A DNA stretch of 64,000 bases from Candidatus Staskawiczbacteria bacterium RIFCSPHIGHO2_01_FULL_39_25 (GCA_001820095.1 MHOO01000003.1:987-64986); one strand, 5' to 3'. Positions 51,943 to 59,020 are shown, counted from the first letter of the stretch. The notes: generated by a model from the letters alone, not told the origin. A program made the numbers and translations.

Positions 51943-52014
51943 TTGCGGGATCGTCTAATGGTAGGACAACAGATTCTGGATCTGTTTATCTTGGTTCGAA
52001 TCCAAGTCCCGCAG
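51943..52014 (+). tRNA. tRNA-Gln (anticodon CTG)
   Basis: Acceptor TGCGGGA/TCCCGCA, anticodon arm ACAGA-TTCTGGA-TCTGT, T-arm CTTGG-TTCGAAT-CCAAG. Confidence 0.9.
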
Positions 52015-52066
52015 CACGCATGGGCTAAGTCGGGTGACCGAGTTGCATATGTAAATTTAAATAAAT

Positions 52067-53984: not shown

Positions 53985-54212
53985 TTAAATGAGTGCGTCT
54001 AATTCTAAACGCATTGCTCTCCAATCAAAGGTTCGCAGTTCGTCCAAAAGGGGGAGATTAGAATCAGAACTGTTCAAAACTGGCGTAAAATCGCCAGTTT
54101 TGTTCGTAAAATCGGCTGTTTTGGTCGGTTCGAATTTTTTAAAATCAATAATATCAATGAGCCGCTGATATGGGCTCTCTGGAATATTCATTGTAATTTT
54201 AATAGCTAACAA
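53985..54212 (-). CDS. Small hypothetical ORF downstream of the endonuclease gene
   Basis: 75-aa ORF (possibly starting at the internal MNIPES); no motif. Confidence 0.3.
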   Translation of the reverse strand: MLAIKITMNIPESPYQRLIDIIDFKKFEPTKTADFTNKTGDFTPVLNSSDSNLPLLDELRTFDWRAMRLELDALI

Positions 54213-54225
54213 TTACCTTATCTAC

Positions 54226-55929
54226 CTAAGCCGGTGTCATAGAGAAAGCGGAGGTAATTTTACTAGAAATACCTTGATACCATTCAGCTTCATTGGAGGC
54301 TTTTAGTGCTAAGCTTGCCATTTCGCTCAGGAGTACTTTTATATCCTGAGAATTTGGTTTATTTTGAGCGTTTTTTGCATTTTCAAGCAATCTTCTAAAG
54401 TCATCCAGGGCTAATGGTATAATCGTTGAGCGACCACCGTAATATTGAACATCGGTACGCGAAAGGACAAAGTAATGGGCAAGAGTAGCAGGATTTATTT
54501 GTGGTGCTATAAAAATTGCAAAAACTGGCTTTGTAGTATTCTTCCGATGATTACCATAATGCCGCGATACCGGCTCTCCCTCCATTTCATATTGTCGTTG
54601 CCCTGATGACAAAGTTACCTCAACTATGGCTTCAAAATCAGCATATTTACATACAATATCTGGCGTATTACCTGGTGCTGCGTAAAGTGGCGCACCGTGA
54701 TTATCAACTCGAAAGTTTCCTTCTATTGTTCCGTCATCAAGCATTTCCATAGCTCTCCACGTATTCCATTCAAGAAATAGAGCAGGGTCAGCTATGTCAG
54801 AATTACGAATCCGGTCAAAAGTATCTTGGATATCACTGTATTCCTCATAAGTACGAAGCTTACTTCTTTCTTGGCCAAGTATACGTTCGAGGTTTTTACT
54901 TAGCAATGCAGAGAAAATATCTTTAAGCTCCTCAATCGTCTTTGTGTGTAATGTTTCAATCGGATATTCACTGCTTTGCAAGGCAATATTCTGTATTAAA
55001 CCATCCATATTATCTGTGAGAAGTATCGGAGTTGTTGCTGGAAATAAATAATTTACATATTCTTCTTTTGAATCAAAATCTTGTGATTTTCTTGAAACTG
55101 TCTCAAGGATATAGTCTACATCTTTAGCTCGCTCCGGCATAACAAAAACCCGTAATGATTTTGCATTAAAAGTAAAAAGGCCTGTTGCTCTTAGATATCT
55201 TATCGAAGCATCGGCATAATCAGTATGATTGCGTTGCTTGATTCTAATAAATGATTTTAGCGAAGAGTCGTCTGATTCCCTTGTTGAGATTTCACCGCTT
55301 CTTATTTCTTCTGCAAATAGCGAAGTGAGCTCCTGTTCAAAATATTGTGCAATAAATTCTCTATAATTCACTTGCCGTCGCTCTCTGTTTTTTCGAGCCG
55401 CTTTTCGAAAGTTCTCAATTTTACGCTGGATGGTTTTATAATTTTTATAATTCGTAAGCTTAATAACAAATAAAGCAATTTCCGTTTTACTAAGACCTTC
55501 AAGGTCGCGGACCAGCCGCATTAATTCGAGGTAAGGTTTAACTGCAAATTTTCTATTTTCATCGATATGGTAGGGTGATGGCAATTGAAATTTTAACATC
55601 TGTCTAAGCAGAGTTTCCTCCGGACGGTTACCGTAAATAAAACTATGACCAGCTGGTGTCAACGCTATGACTGGTTTAAGATCAACAAAGCCAAGTGATT
55701 TTGGTCCACGAGTTATGCGATCTCTGGCACTAAAAGCTGGATCAGAAGATTGACTGCCTTCAAAAAATGGCTGGTGTACCAATGCTTCATAATATTCGCG
55801 CTGCGTTTCTGCAGTCCATTTTTTACCTGAAAAGTTTTCGATGAGAAAACGTATCTCATCTTTCATTTTGAAAGGTGATCTTGGAGAAGTTACAAAGAAA
55901 ATAGTCTTTTTGCCTGTAATGATGGCCAT
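54226..55929 (-). CDS. AlwI/BstNBI-family type II (IIS or nicking-type) restriction endonuclease
   Basis: Blocks match my recollection of N.BstNBI/PleI/MlyI: SPRSP, AFSARDR, GLSKTEIALF, DYADASIRYLRATGLF, PGNTPDIVCKYADFEAIVEVTLSSGQRQYEMEGEPVSRHY, IFIAPQIN. Confidence 0.78.
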   Translation of the reverse strand: MAIITGKKTIFFVTSPRSPFKMKDEIRFLIENFSGKKWTAETQREYYEALVHQPFFEGSQSSDPAFSARDRITRGPKSLGFVDLKPVIALTPAGHSFIYGNRPEETLLRQMLKFQLPSPYHIDENRKFAVKPYLELMRLVRDLEGLSKTEIALFVIKLTNYKNYKTIQRKIENFRKAARKNRERRQVNYREFIAQYFEQELTSLFAEEIRSGEISTRESDDSSLKSFIRIKQRNHTDYADASIRYLRATGLFTFNAKSLRVFVMPERAKDVDYILETVSRKSQDFDSKEEYVNYLFPATTPILLTDNMDGLIQNIALQSSEYPIETLHTKTIEELKDIFSALLSKNLERILGQERSKLRTYEEYSDIQDTFDRIRNSDIADPALFLEWNTWRAMEMLDDGTIEGNFRVDNHGAPLYAAPGNTPDIVCKYADFEAIVEVTLSSGQRQYEMEGEPVSRHYGNHRKNTTKPVFAIFIAPQINPATLAHYFVLSRTDVQYYGGRSTIIPLALDDFRRLLENAKNAQNKPNSQDIKVLLSEMASLALKASNEAEWYQGISSKITSAFSMTPA

Positions 55930-57380
55930 GTTATTTCTTTTTTATTCACCGATTTACCATTTGCCTGAAGCGGGTCATTGCCGATAGATAAAAATGTCTT
56001 AATACGATTTTCTGAAACATCAAATGCTTTATTAGATATATCGCAGCCGATGAAATTACATTTTGCTTTAATAGCCGCTATTGCTGAAGAACCACTGCCG
56101 AGAAAAGGGTCGCAAATAGTGTAATTATCACCAGCACTTGCCTTAATCATCATATCAAATACTTCTACTGGTTTCTGGGTTGGATATTGAGCATTGTGTA
56201 TTCTCTTTATTTTCCAAACGTCAGGTATTGATTTACTGCTTAATTTTCTCTTATTACTATTTGTAGCAAACATAATAAATTCGTGCTGTCTCCTAAAGTA
56301 GTGTCCCATGCCTACATTTACTTTATCCCACACAATTACATTTTTAACATCAAAATATTTACGCATTAAAGGCGCTAGCGAAAGTAGGGAAAATGAATCA
56401 AACATGATGTACAAATGTCCGGTATCTTTTTTAAGAACTCTTTTACATTCAGCTAGAAATTCTTTGTAATTTTCTTCAGTATCCTGAAATTCAGCAAACC
56501 ATCGACCATTCTCTTTTCCCTTATCGGCATATTTACCAACTATTCTTCCGCTATGTAGCATCAAATGATTATTCATGCCAGAGTATGCCGGATCAGTGGT
56601 TATCAAATCTATACTGTGATCATCTAACTTTTTAAGGAATCTAATACAGTCGTCTTGAACAATTCTGACGGTTTTGCCTGATGTATAATCTTGTTCATAT
56701 TTCCTGATCGGCGCATCAGATTTCAATGTTTCTGAATTTTGTTTTTTCTCGGTAATGATTTCCGGAATATCTACCCCAGTTTCTTGGATTACATCAATCA
56801 CTATTCCTTGTATTGCAACGTCGCGGCCACTTCTAAAAATCAGAGGTTCCATGCTTTTATTTGCTGGCTGTAAACGTATTTGTCCTTTTTCTTTATAAAA
56901 TTTCTTAAGTGTTGCTTCGTGGTTGTCGATTAGTGCTACCACTTTTTGTCCATTGTTGGCGGTCGTCTGCTGCCGAACCAAAACAATGTCTCCGTTATTA
57001 ATATTTTCATCAATCATACTATCACCAACAACGCGAAGCGCATAGACCTCTGATGAAGCTGGAATTTTACTTTTTGGTACTGCAATTATCTCCTTATTTT
57101 CAATCGCTTCTATGGGTTGGCCGGCAGCAATAGTTCCCAGTAAGGGAACCTTAATCATCGGCTCAGATTCATAGATATCAATCGCGCGAGCATTATTACC
57201 AGCCTTTTTCAAGTATCCCTTTTTAGCAAGAGTTTTTATGTGTTGATGAACAGTAGAAACGGCGGAAAGTTTGAGTCCAGCACAAATTTCCTCAAGTGTG
57301 GGGGGATATTTTTTCTTGCTGATAAACTTCTTAATGAAGTCCAATACCTCTTTTTGTCTTTTCGTAATTGGTAATGGCAT
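55890..57380 (-). CDS. Fusion protein: full-length LexA (wHTH plus S24 autopeptidase) joined to a beta-class N6A/N4C DNA methyltransferase
   Basis: aa 1-200 are LexA-like: TKRQKEVLDFI, cleavage site IAAG (A86-G87), GDSM (S121), TLKKF (K159). aa ~235-496 are the MTase: TDPAY (263-266), YPTQKP, DPFLGSGSS. The 3' end overlaps the endonuclease start by 40 nt. Confidence 0.85.
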   Translation of the reverse strand: MPLPITKRQKEVLDFIKKFISKKKYPPTLEEICAGLKLSAVSTVHQHIKTLAKKGYLKKAGNNARAIDIYESEPMIKVPLLGTIAAGQPIEAIENKEIIAVPKSKIPASSEVYALRVVGDSMIDENINNGDIVLVRQQTTANNGQKVVALIDNHEATLKKFYKEKGQIRLQPANKSMEPLIFRSGRDVAIQGIVIDVIQETGVDIPEIITEKKQNSETLKSDAPIRKYEQDYTSGKTVRIVQDDCIRFLKKLDDHSIDLITTDPAYSGMNNHLMLHSGRIVGKYADKGKENGRWFAEFQDTEENYKEFLAECKRVLKKDTGHLYIMFDSFSLLSLAPLMRKYFDVKNVIVWDKVNVGMGHYFRRQHEFIMFATNSNKRKLSSKSIPDVWKIKRIHNAQYPTQKPVEVFDMMIKASAGDNYTICDPFLGSGSSAIAAIKAKCNFIGCDISNKAFDVSENRIKTFLSIGNDPLQANGKSVNKKEITWPSLQAKRLFSL

Positions 57381-57498
57381 AAAGTTTATTGATGAGGTTA
57401 AATTTAAGTGCTATATTATCATTGTACCGAAAATTTTACGAAAATAGGATAGGGCAGTTTATCCACATATTGTTTACTTTTTTATAGCAACGTTAGTA

Positions 57499-57527
57499 TT
57501 GACATATAAATATCTATAAACTAAAAT
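57499..57527 (+). promoter_or_regulatory. Candidate promoter of the XRE/ImmA operon, with an 8-bp palindrome at the predicted start site
   Basis: TTGACA (57499-57504), 17-nt spacer, TAAAAT (57522-57527); TACATGTA at 57529-57536. Confidence 0.55.
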
Positions 57528-57555: not shown

Positions 57556-57903
57556 ATGAACAATGAATTTGGCGTAAAACTTAAAAATTTGAGGGAGAAA
57601 CATTTCCCGGGCCATAGTATGCGCAAGGTTGCCGATCTTGTAGCGCCCCAGATTCAGTCCGGTGATTATTTTTTTACCCAGCTAAACAAAATGGAATCTG
57701 GTGTCTTGATCCCCTCCGCAAATTTACTACTAAAAATATTGGATGCCTATAGTGCTGACGCAGAAGAAAGAAAAGAAGTGCTTATCGCATATGCCACCGC
57801 GGCAGCTTTGAAAAAGGTTGATGAAGTGGGACAGGCCTCAAAGCAAAATATCCATCGCGAGGTAGTTGAGAGTTTGCACAGGAAACTTAAAAAGAAAAAT
57901 TAA
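57556..57903 (+). CDS. XRE-family helix-turn-helix regulator (ImmR-like)
   Basis: FGVKLKNLREKHFPGHSMRKVADLV...LNKMESGVLIPSANLLLKILDAY. Confidence 0.8.
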   Translation: MNNEFGVKLKNLREKHFPGHSMRKVADLVAPQIQSGDYFFTQLNKMESGVLIPSANLLLKILDAYSADAEERKEVLIAYATAAALKKVDEVGQASKQNIHREVVESLHRKLKKKN

Positions 57904-58547
57904 TGGGACTAAAAATTACAAAAAAGGGTATTCCTATAGCCAAGCTTTATATTTCCGATGAAGACATTGAGTGGCAGGCCATGGCTGATTTGATTACCTA
58001 CCGAAAAAAGTGGCTTGCTGCTTATGGCAAACCACTAACTGGGCCTCTCGATGTAGATAATTTTATAAAAGAACTTTGGGGTATGGAAGTTACATATGAA
58101 GAATTGCCGCAATCTGCAGACGAGGAATCACTGGGCGTCTTTAAACCGGAAACCCAGGAAGTAATCATTGATCCGGTAGCCTGTAATCACCCTAAAAGAA
58201 TTTCGTTCACTGTCGCCCATGAAGCTGGCCATTTATCACTACACGTATTTCTTTTCGTGGTTAAAGAAGGAAAGTTTGTTGGTTGGAAAAAAGACCACGC
58301 TTCTTGTGACAAAAACTTGGAATATCAAGCAAACCTATATGCTGGCTCGTTATTGGCTCCTGAGCAAGAGATCTGCGGCCTGTTAAAGGAAAAAGGGTTG
58401 TCTATAAATAATTTGATAGCTAATCCAATTGACCTGTCCGCACATCTTGCGTCCTTCCAGGAAAAATTTGGGCTATCTAGGCACGCTTTAGAAATTAGAC
58501 TTAACCGGCTCGGAGTTCCTATGGCAGATGCAAAATATTTGAATTGA
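57903..58547 (+). CDS. ImmA/IrrE-family (COG2856) zinc metallopeptidase
   Basis: HEAGHLSLH (HExxH) motif; TAATG overlap with the XRE gene. Confidence 0.85.
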   Translation: MGLKITKKGIPIAKLYISDEDIEWQAMADLITYRKKWLAAYGKPLTGPLDVDNFIKELWGMEVTYEELPQSADEESLGVFKPETQEVIIDPVACNHPKRISFTVAHEAGHLSLHVFLFVVKEGKFVGWKKDHASCDKNLEYQANLYAGSLLAPEQEICGLLKEKGLSINNLIANPIDLSAHLASFQEKFGLSRHALEIRLNRLGVPMADAKYLN

Positions 58548-58554
58548 GTTATCT

Positions 58555-58584
58555 AAAAAACCGCTTTTTTGAGCGGTTCTTTAG
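58555..58584 (+). terminator. Possible terminator after the ImmA-like gene
   Basis: aaccgc-ttttttga-gcggtt followed by cttt. Confidence 0.45.
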
Positions 58585-58738
58585 GGCACTGAATTTGTCC
58601 TGACAGGATCATCAATGGATTATATGAGTCATAGTTTGATGGCTTAACTCATAAATCCGGTCGACTGATTTTTCTTGTTCTGTATCCATCATAACAGGTT
58701 CGGTGCCCGATAGCAAACCTAACGAAGTTCTTACTAAA

Positions 58739-59020
58739 ATGAGTATATCAGACCAATTGGTAAGGCTAGTCTGGACAAAGGCTATTATTGTTCCCGGGCG
58801 CGACTCAAGCAAAATGCGTAAAGATGCTTGTGGTGCATGGATTCATTGGGAGCAATACGGAAACCGAAACAGTCAATTTGGTTGGGAAGTTGATCACATC
58901 ATCGCTACTACAAGAGGTGGAAGTGATTTAATTTTCAATCTCCGCCCACTACACTGGCAAAACAATGCCAGAAAGTCAGATGGAAGAAGTCTCGTTTGTC
59001 CAGTTACGGCCTCAGCCTAA
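58739..59020 (+). CDS. Small HNH endonuclease (ATG 58739 preferred over GTG 58703)
   Basis: GWEVDHIIATTRGGSDLIFNLRPLHWQNNARKSD. Confidence 0.8.
   Translation: MSISDQLVRLVWTKAIIVPGRDSSKMRKDACGAWIHWEQYGNRNSQFGWEVDHIIATTRGGSDLIFNLRPLHWQNNARKSDGRSLVCPVTASA

Follow-up and report, generated by a model that had tools for sequence, protein, structure and literature searches.

The locus described here raises the question of whether a restriction-modification (R-M) system can carry its own SOS repressor. In a 64,000-nt stretch of the genome of Candidatus Staskawiczbacteria bacterium RIFCSPHIGHO2_01_FULL_39_25 (GCA_001820095.1, MHOO01000003.1:987-64986), the whole of which we call the window, a preliminary description had pointed to a single open reading frame (ORF) in which a complete LexA, with an Ala-Gly self-cleavage site, a Ser nucleophile and a Lys general base, continues in frame into a beta-class DNA methyltransferase, followed by an overlapping AlwI-family endonuclease gene. 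The fusion and its parts were mapped to the following window positions.

55890..57380, (-) strand: LexA-methyltransferase fusion ORF, 496 amino acids (aa), ATG start
57183..57371, (-) strand: LexA winged helix-turn-helix (HTH) DNA-binding domain, aa 4-66 (Pfam PF01726 LexA_DNA_bind, 3e-18)
57243-57245, (-) strand: codon of Q46 in the recognition helix S42-T-V-H-Q46-H47; Q46 aligned on E. coli LexA E45
57120..57125, (-) strand: predicted autocleavage bond Ala86-Gly87, aligned on E. coli LexA A84-G85
56796..57146, (-) strand: Peptidase S24 domain, aa 79-195 (Pfam PF00717, 2e-31)
57018-57020, (-) strand: codon of S121, aligned on E. coli LexA S119
56904-56906, (-) strand: codon of K159, aligned on E. 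coli LexA K156
56613..56795, (-) strand: linker between S24 and methyltransferase, aa 196-256, without an internal Met as a separate methyltransferase start
56010..56612, (-) strand: beta-class N6/N4 DNA methyltransferase domain, aa 257-457 (Pfam PF01555 N6_N4_Mtase, 9e-28)
56583-56594, (-) strand: motif IV DPAY, aa 263-266, codons read by hand
56085-56111, (-) strand: motif I DPFLGSGSS, aa 424-432, codons read by hand

The first 202 aa aligned end to end with LexA of Thermotoga maritima (3k2z, 5e-37) and with E. coli LexA (structures 1JHH and 3JSO). The NCBIfam equivalog model for lexA (TIGR00498) matched aa 4-200 with 196.3 bits, the cut-off being 110.95. Alignment to E. coli LexA and hand-checked codons placed the Ala-Gly site, the Ser nucleophile and the Lys base at the residues first proposed, S121 and K159 lying on the catalytic S119 and K156. 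The methyltransferase half scored 98.2 bits against the N6_N4_Mtase profile (cut-off 26.7), and its matches in PDB were the beta-class enzymes CcrM, MboIIA, RsrI and DpnA. Its motifs, found at the coordinates given before, follow the beta-class order, IV and then I. Motif IV has A in place of P (DPAY), as in all close homologues. The methyltransferase half is apparently intact, and methyl transfer is predicted. The exact 496-aa ORF, with the same neighbours, was found in at least four independent assemblies (ENA, NCBI GCA_001822005.1, Logan), and an identical NCBI protein from Candidatus Staskawiczbacteria bacterium RIFCSPLOWO2_01_FULL_40_39 is named 'repressor LexA'. Since the identical ORF recurs in at least four assemblies, a frameshift or misjoin is excluded, and the view that no stop or frameshift separates the LexA and methyltransferase parts was borne out. 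As judged from its sequence, the product is one bifunctional protein, in which a genuine Patescibacteria-type LexA (the N-terminal 200 aa) is joined to a protective methyltransferase.

Is this fusion exceptional? The preliminary description had regarded the architecture as unusual. This still holds for its study, as no characterisation was found in the searchable literature, but not for its occurrence: the architecture is widespread in Patescibacteria and occurs with every major DNA-methyltransferase class. We collected the 80 loci from species-representative genomes that best matched the LexA half of the window gene. The frame runs on past LexA in 78 of them, 74 of these genes being complete, by 246-415 aa and in one case by 931 aa; an early stop after LexA was seen only in L017 (Uhrbacteria) and L061. 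Pfam recognised LexA_DNA_bind, Peptidase_S24 and N6_N4_Mtase in 72 of the 74 aligned proteins. An initial protein search had returned 19 fusion clusters with highly similar LexA halves, the methyltransferase halves of which represented four or more subfamilies (TDPAY, SPPY and two types of ADPPY). The C-terminal halves form at least 14 clusters at 40% identity. The next gene is usually convergent, with overlapping stops, and tracks the methyltransferase cluster 1:1; those recognised by Pfam encode TaqI, BglII, HindIII, EcoO109I, PvuII, MutH/Sau3AI-like, His-Me finger and HNH endonucleases.

A second set came from an exhaustive HMMER search in which the LexA half was compared with the representatives of 1.84 billion clusters. 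Among the ~60 best relatives, about 42 were proteins of 390-890 aa with an N-terminal LexA. The Pfam partners in 45 long matches (clusters at 50% identity) were N6_N4_Mtase (31), the gamma-class Eco57I (7) and N6_Mtase (5), D12/Dam-like (5), MmeI-type (4) and C5 cytosine (2) methyltransferases. The Ala-Gly bond, the Ser and the Lys (A86, G87, S121, K159) were invariant in both the 74- and the 45-sequence sets, and no catalytically dead LexA variant was seen in either. Twenty-five columns are invariant in the 74-sequence alignment, all in the LexA part of ~200 residues, and 18 in the 45-sequence set. Thus complete LexA modules fused to methyltransferases are supported by more than 70 homologous fusions besides the profile matches, residue mapping and independent assemblies. 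The window gene is an ordinary member of the family; its notable features are the AlwI partner and the co-transcribed layout of methyltransferase (M) and endonuclease (R).

Record titles in the family are nearly all of Patescibacteria (Paceibacterota, Liptonbacteria, Nealsonbacteria, Jorgensenbacteria, Falkowbacteria, Moranbacteria and others). Labels of metagenome-assembled genomes as Gammaproteobacteria, Pseudomonadota, Ignavibacteria, Sphingobacteriaceae or Bdellovibrionales were noted among L035, L042, L044, L046, L047, L051, L079 and L080; these may be mis-binned contigs of the Candidate Phyla Radiation (CPR) or cases of transfer outside CPR. One locus (L057 5998-9384) encodes a fusion of 1128 aa (1135 aa in the open frame from the preceding stop) made up of LexA, N6_N4_Mtase and a gamma-class methyltransferase (N6_Mtase/Eco57I/TaqI_C), and a methyltransferase-like gene follows. 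At three loci (L016 8498-8863, L031 4074-4457 and L079 8442-8843 (-)) a gene for an HTH_3, C-protein-like product of 121-133 aa precedes the convergent endonuclease gene, so that these systems join a LexA-fused M to a separate controller of R.

If the N-terminal half acts as a LexA, it should have an operator, and a candidate was found at the promoter of the fusion gene itself.

57426..57443, (-) strand: direct repeat TTTCGTA-AAAT-TTTCGGT, predicted to be the LexA operator, adjoining the -10
57421..57426, (-) strand: predicted -10 hexamer TACAAT, with one base common to the operator
57459..57467, (-) strand: DnaA-box-like 9-mer TGTGGATAA (= TTATCCACA), upstream of the operator; association only

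The same geometry of operator and -10 was present in homologous promoters (TTTCGGTATAAT and similar). From the aligned upstream regions of 76 fusion genes (loci labelled L008-L087), we derived the consensus TTTC[GT][AG]T-N4-TTTC[GT][AG]T, which at its 3' end either adjoins a TATAAT-like -10 or has one base in common with it. The direct repeat matched at 12 or more of 14 positions in 67 of the 76 promoters and was perfect in 48. Strict matching across 709 kb of locus DNA gave 53 repeats. Of these, 45 are on the + strand, no more than 120 bp ahead of the fusion start; four of the other eight have the inverted orientation and stand 41-70 bp ahead of it, within the same intergenic region, and two more are found 200 and 314 bp upstream. 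The same strict scan of 709 kb found no LexA box at the endonuclease genes of homologous loci. When the window was scanned with up to three mismatches, ten loose matches were obtained against 8.2 expected by chance, and the fusion promoter alone was convincing.

The two half-sites of one promoter vary together, and they covary with the residue x of H-x-H in helix 3. Phe at this residue goes with TA at half-site positions 5-6 (TTTCTAT) in 77 of 82 half-sites, and Gln or Glu with GG (TTTCGG(T/G)) in 39 of 41, while His or Tyr is accompanied by a mixture of GA and TA. After collapse to 40 LexA clusters at 80% identity, which corrects only partly for shared ancestry, the association was 14/14 for Q-GG, 5/7 for E-GG and 10/12 for F-TA. 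The window follows this rule with Q46 and TTTCGGT. No other computational evidence for binding of the fused LexA to its own promoter is as strong as this covariation.

A perfect DnaA-box 9-mer stands 0-20 nt upstream of the repeat in 50 of the 76 fusion promoters (0.18 expected from shuffles), and 65 have one with at most one mismatch; stand-alone lexA promoters (L088, L090) have the 9-mer too. This may point to a replication-linked second input. Other elements recur in the upstream regions. Of the 76 fusion genes, 35 have GTCAA at a distance of 8-12 nt upstream of the start codon, where 1.8 would be expected; the window has ATCAA in a similar place, and a Shine-Dalgarno-like GGAG occurs in just 2 of 76 within the last 30 nt before the start. 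A palindrome TATAC...GTATA often follows the -10.

Does the repeat belong to the SOS response of the lineage rather than to the R-M genes? A metagenome collection contained 83 stretches with an exact TTTCGGT-N4-TTTCGGTATAAT, of which 80 were analysed. The element was upstream of lexA in 57 of the 80, comprising 25 stand-alone genes (201-213 aa), at least 21 fusions and a remainder of incomplete genes. In one metagenome contig it was found with a -10 upstream of a Pfam-confirmed uvrA. A paper from the Erill laboratory (PMC7739468) refers to a study of SOS in Patescibacteria for a LexA motif of the direct-repeat type. From its position in these promoters, the direct repeat is read as the SOS box of the lineage. 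Three stand-alone LexA proteins of 211 aa, 66-72% identical to the LexA half of the window gene, are each followed at 6-20 nt by a DpnI-family endonuclease gene.

L090 6001-7412: LexA-DpnI operon
L125 4001-5426: LexA-DpnI operon
L126 4001-5414: LexA-DpnI operon

These operons lie in three different neighbourhoods and have the same promoter architecture; endonucleases of the DpnI family are methyl-directed and need no methyltransferase. A fourth stand-alone LexA is followed by a separate N6_N4 methyltransferase gene, and a LexA of 204 aa (P0221) has no R-M neighbour and carries the same box inverted, after the -10. Because stand-alone LexA forms operons with DpnI, LexA must be seen as associated with restriction outside the methyltransferase fusions too.

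The two halves of the fusion appear to have separate histories. In 40 of 77 fusions, the nearest LexA half carries a methyltransferase of a different cluster, and LexA identity across different methyltransferase clusters reaches 91% (L011 vs L013). The nearest relatives of the window LexA half are 74-78% identical and are fused to four methyltransferase families. The methyltransferase half of the window gene shares 59-65% identity across the full alignment (60-69% by local BLASTP) with stand-alone methyltransferases, the named ones being from Bacteroidota (Flavobacteriales, Chryseobacterium, Saprospirales) and Chloroflexi. The one homologue looked up (P0030) adjoins an AlwI endonuclease. Outside CPR, the same M-R(AlwI) pair is found without LexA. 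In place of LexA, four of seven aligned stand-alone homologues (P0030, P0018, P0034 and P0056) have an N-terminal extension of ~55 aa, for which no Pfam match was found. Conserved synteny was not found upstream of ~70 fusion loci, where 121 upstream proteins gave 11 matching pairs. On these comparisons, the LexA module is taken to have been grafted repeatedly onto unrelated R-M systems and not inherited with the methyltransferase. Large serine recombinases (~530 aa; Resolvase, Recombinase and Zn_ribbon_recom) were noted 1-5 kb from several fusion cassettes (L048 3828-5450, L074, L079, L040 and L001 16829-18412), several loci having one at a distance of 1-2 kb. There are hints that the cassettes ride on integrative elements. 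A phage-borne origin was considered and rejected, as only two full fusions were present among the viral contigs of IMG/VR.

In the window, the gene following the fusion is its endonuclease partner.

54226..55929, (-) strand: AlwI-family type IIS restriction endonuclease, 567 aa (Pfam RE_AlwI, 1e-54)

The RE_AlwI match spans profile positions 3-441 of 441. The endonuclease gene has the same orientation as the fusion gene, and its first 40 nt coincide with the 3' end of the methyltransferase gene, as had been proposed; since the N-terminus of the endonuclease is conserved with homologues, the overlap is real. The same pairing of methyltransferase and AlwI endonuclease was found in L092, where the methyltransferase is fused, and in L094, where it is not. 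By family assignment and gene order, the operon is a type II(S) R-M system of the AlwI family with its cognate endonuclease predicted to be co-transcribed. No C gene was found in the window operon. Over the whole window, GATC (105 observed, 165 expected from a Markov model) and TCGA (53 against 97) were both depleted, and no extra depletion of GGATC (53 observed, 50 expected) or of GAGTC was found, so that avoidance does not reveal the target of the AlwI-family system.

These data suggest the following mechanism. The LexA part would dimerise through S24 and bind TTTCGTA-N4-TTTCGGT (57426-57443), which overlaps the operon promoter, so that the concentration of the methyltransferase would repress M-R transcription in the manner of the short HTH of SsoII/EcoRII-type methyltransferases. 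Self-cleavage at A86-G87 would be set off by RecA filaments that assemble on damaged DNA or on phage DNA, and would yield an HTH fragment of 86 aa and an S24-methyltransferase fragment of 410 aa. With the DNA-binding domain detached, the operon would be derepressed, and R-M expression would be wired to the SOS signal. As M and R of the window are co-transcribed, the levels of both would go up. We regard autorepression through the direct repeat as likely. We hold with moderate confidence that self-cleavage takes place physiologically, and we give about the same credence to the module acting as a cleavable autorepressor that places the M-R operon under SOS control. The tie between R-M and the SOS signal put forward in the preliminary description draws new support from the operator on the gene's own promoter, the helix covariation and the box before lexA and one uvrA; what we infer is that the protein binds DNA and represses, that RecA stimulates its cleavage, and how the fragments fare and act. 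We are least sure of the physiological purpose. Extra methylation once repair synthesis has made unmodified DNA, a boost of defence at the time of infection, or both are conceivable, and each particular pay-off taken singly is rather doubtful.

Several points weigh against this mechanism. The first half-site of the window, TTTCGTA, deviates from the consensus at two positions, and the fusion promoter has a poor -35, because of which a consensus promoter scan missed it. As noted above, shared ancestry is only partly corrected for in the covariation statistics. A search for recA, like one for a second lexA, came up empty both in the window and across 1.6 Mb of fetched loci; with no recA seen there, RecA in the host genome is assumed. 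An AlphaFold2 model of the full protein, built from a 19-sequence alignment, had a mean predicted local distance difference test (pLDDT) score of 62 and a predicted template modelling score of 0.48, with the cleavage loop and the linker below pLDDT 50; this quality is insufficient for domain geometry or a fold search. Most homologues have a convergent endonuclease without a LexA box, and some have their own HTH_3 controller. Since endonuclease layouts differ, the effect of SOS on the M:R ratio would depend on the system. In the convergent homologues with only M under the box, the ratio of M to R would go up upon damage, which would be a type II counterpart of restriction alleviation; in the DpnI operons, damage would raise restriction.

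A wider reading extends this mechanism from the window to the lineage, and we advance it only tentatively. Across much of CPR, the SOS repressor and the R-M methyltransferase might be one cleavable protein; a mobile cassette of promoter, SOS box and lexA would be placed on every methyltransferase class and on DpnI-type endonucleases and would supply the sole LexA in many tiny genomes. If so, one proteolytic event would reset both defence and DNA repair upon damage or phage replication, and the DnaA box may add a replication input.

The most probable of the rival explanations is that the fusion is the sole housekeeping LexA of the organism and its master SOS repressor, to which an R-M cassette became attached during genome compaction; control of R-M would be a side effect, and what matters would be regulation of the SOS regulon. 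The LexA half exceeds the lexA equivalog cut-off, and the promoter layout of DnaA-box-like 9-mer, repeat and -10 is that of the stand-alone lexA genes L017, L088 and L090. In addition, the same box stands before a uvrA, no second lexA was found within the 64-kb window, and fusions make up 78 of the 80 LexA genes closest to it in species genomes. However, LexA is always N-terminal, and its partner is always a DNA methyltransferase, of every class, or an endonuclease operon; this exclusiveness argues for selection rather than accidental fusion. Near-identical LexA modules with different R-M partners also occur in unrelated neighbourhoods, often near serine recombinases, which makes the module look mobile and not housekeeping. 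Furthermore, half-site specificity shifts at 70-75% LexA identity, a change easier for a regulator of one operator than for one of a whole regulon. We consider this explanation unlikely, and it is compatible with a cleavable autorepressor of the operon.

Less probable still is that the LexA module serves as a binding and dimerisation autorepressor for the safe establishment of R-M, like C proteins or M.SsoII, and that autocleavage has no physiological role. Autorepression by an N-terminal HTH at an operator overlapping the promoter is an established mode of R-M control (PMC3874152), the operator of the fusion sits on the promoter, and methyltransferase homologues outside CPR bear a short N-terminal extension at the same place. 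Dimerisation alone would not need the Ala-Gly bond and the Ser/Lys pair, which are invariant in 74 and 45 sequences, and no catalytically dead variant was seen.

RecA-triggered cleavage could also be imagined as a suicide switch resembling abortive infection: it would destabilise or disable the methyltransferase while the endonuclease persists, unmodified DNA of host and phage would be cut and the infected or damaged cell would die. Both cleavage fragments of LexA are degraded in E. coli, which counts in favour of such a switch, and the predicted new C-terminus ...GTIAA appears to resemble the ClpX-recognised ...VAA of cleaved E. coli LexA. R-M systems moreover act much like toxin-antitoxin modules, killing cells that lose the methyltransferase (PMC3874152). 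Against this, instability of the 410-aa fragment is unsupported, cleavage also derepresses synthesis of new full-length protein, and the same LexA module drives DpnI operons, to which the suicide logic cannot apply because no methyltransferase is there. We judge the switch very improbable. Finally, an assembly or frameshift artefact fusing two genes is already refuted by the same ORF in at least four independent assemblies and is further contradicted by more than 70 divergent orthologous fusions with an open linker lacking an internal start, so that its probability is negligible.

The surroundings of the operon are those of a core chromosome, with genes for EF-G, EF-Tu, RpoA, MreB and DNA polymerase III delta', and the R-M operon is on the strand opposite to nearly all other genes of the window. 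No compositional island signal was found in the profile of GC and skew over 50-62 kb, nor were convincing flanking repeats found around 53.6-59.4 kb; the sole tRNA is a tRNA-Gln (51944-52015). A divergent gene begins on the other side of the operator region.

57556-57903, (+) strand: XRE-type HTH, 115 aa, divergent from the R-M operon and overlapping the Peptidase_M78 gene

This gene has a near-consensus divergent promoter at 57499-57527, identified by the consensus promoter scan. It is the first of a group at 57556-59020 (+) consisting of the XRE HTH (115 aa), a Peptidase_M78/ImmA-IrrE-like protein (214 aa) and then a small HNH protein; the XRE/M78 pair may be another damage- or stress-responsive pair of repressor and protease. 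Just past the endonuclease stop, the region 54079-54125 contains a hairpin with a 10-bp stem, AAAACTGGCG-TAAAAT-CGCCAGTTTT, and a 21-nt tandem repeat (54084-54125), and is probably a bidirectional terminator for the convergent genes. The tandem repeat was considered as an operator and rejected as a hairpin/terminator-like element.

In an R-M system, the toxic endonuclease and the protective methyltransferase have to be kept in balance, and a cleavable, RecA-responsive repressor within the methyltransferase would be a further mode of control. We know of no earlier case of a type II R-M system wired directly to the SOS signal. CPR bacteria largely lack CRISPR and rely on R-M, and a lineage-wide rule of R-M regulation would matter for phage-host biology in a major uncultivated group of bacteria. 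The covariation of helix and operator (F-TA, Q/E-GG) would amount to a specificity code for LexA-type winged HTHs, and the fusion family could be a source of orthogonal damage-inducible repressor/operator pairs. In public databases the fusions are annotated automatically as 'repressor LexA' or 'site-specific DNA-methyltransferase'. A full-text literature search found no description of a LexA-methyltransferase fusion; it did not reach a 2017 study of SOS in Patescibacteria, which may mention fusions. A 2013 review of R-M regulation lists control by C proteins, HTH-bearing methyltransferases, promoter methylation and antisense RNA, without LexA-methyltransferase fusions (PMC3874152).

How, then, does the fusion compare with known systems? 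It resembles the LexA of E. coli and Thermotoga maritima in its full-length match, the Ala-Gly and Ser/Lys residues, the predicted operator in its own promoter and the occurrence of the same box at uvrA, but differs in having a C-terminal methyltransferase of 300 aa, a place in an R-M operon and a direct-repeat instead of a palindromic operator. Like the C proteins (C.PvuII, C.AhdI, C.Esp1396I), it would be a dedicated factor that sets the timing or level of R-M, with operator specificities that diversify; C proteins, however, are small HTH_3 proteins in their own right, whose main action is to activate or repress transcription of C-R, and none is encoded in the window operon. In type I restriction alleviation, HsdR is lost after DNA damage in a ClpXP-dependent manner. 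This likewise links damage and repair to the balance of restriction and modification, whereas it acts by post-translational proteolysis of the restriction subunit and involves no LexA fusion; a type II equivalent was not found described in the searchable literature. In Thermus prophages, defence genes are co-transcribed with LexA-like (CI-type) repressors (PMC11437467). There too, restriction genes share an operon with an S24-type repressor, but this is a separate phage lysogeny repressor, neither a bona fide LexA nor fused to a methyltransferase.

The closest parallel in logic is offered by the autorepressor methyltransferases with an N-terminal HTH, M.SsoII, M.Ecl18kI, M.EcoRII and M.ScrFI (reviewed in PMC3874152). 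In both cases a DNA-binding module is at the methyltransferase N-terminus, the operator lies over the gene's own promoter, and the level of the methyltransferase would feed back on transcription. The SsoII-type module is a simple HTH of ~70 aa without a protease, whereas the fusion has a whole LexA of 200 aa with S24 and a cleavage site. The fusion is not a member of the SsoII class, though it probably works like that class, and because it is predicted to bind the SOS box of the lineage, its repression should be reversible by a DNA-damage signal. What is new here is that R-M autoregulation borne by the methyltransferase, a known logic, is combined with a cleavable SOS repressor.

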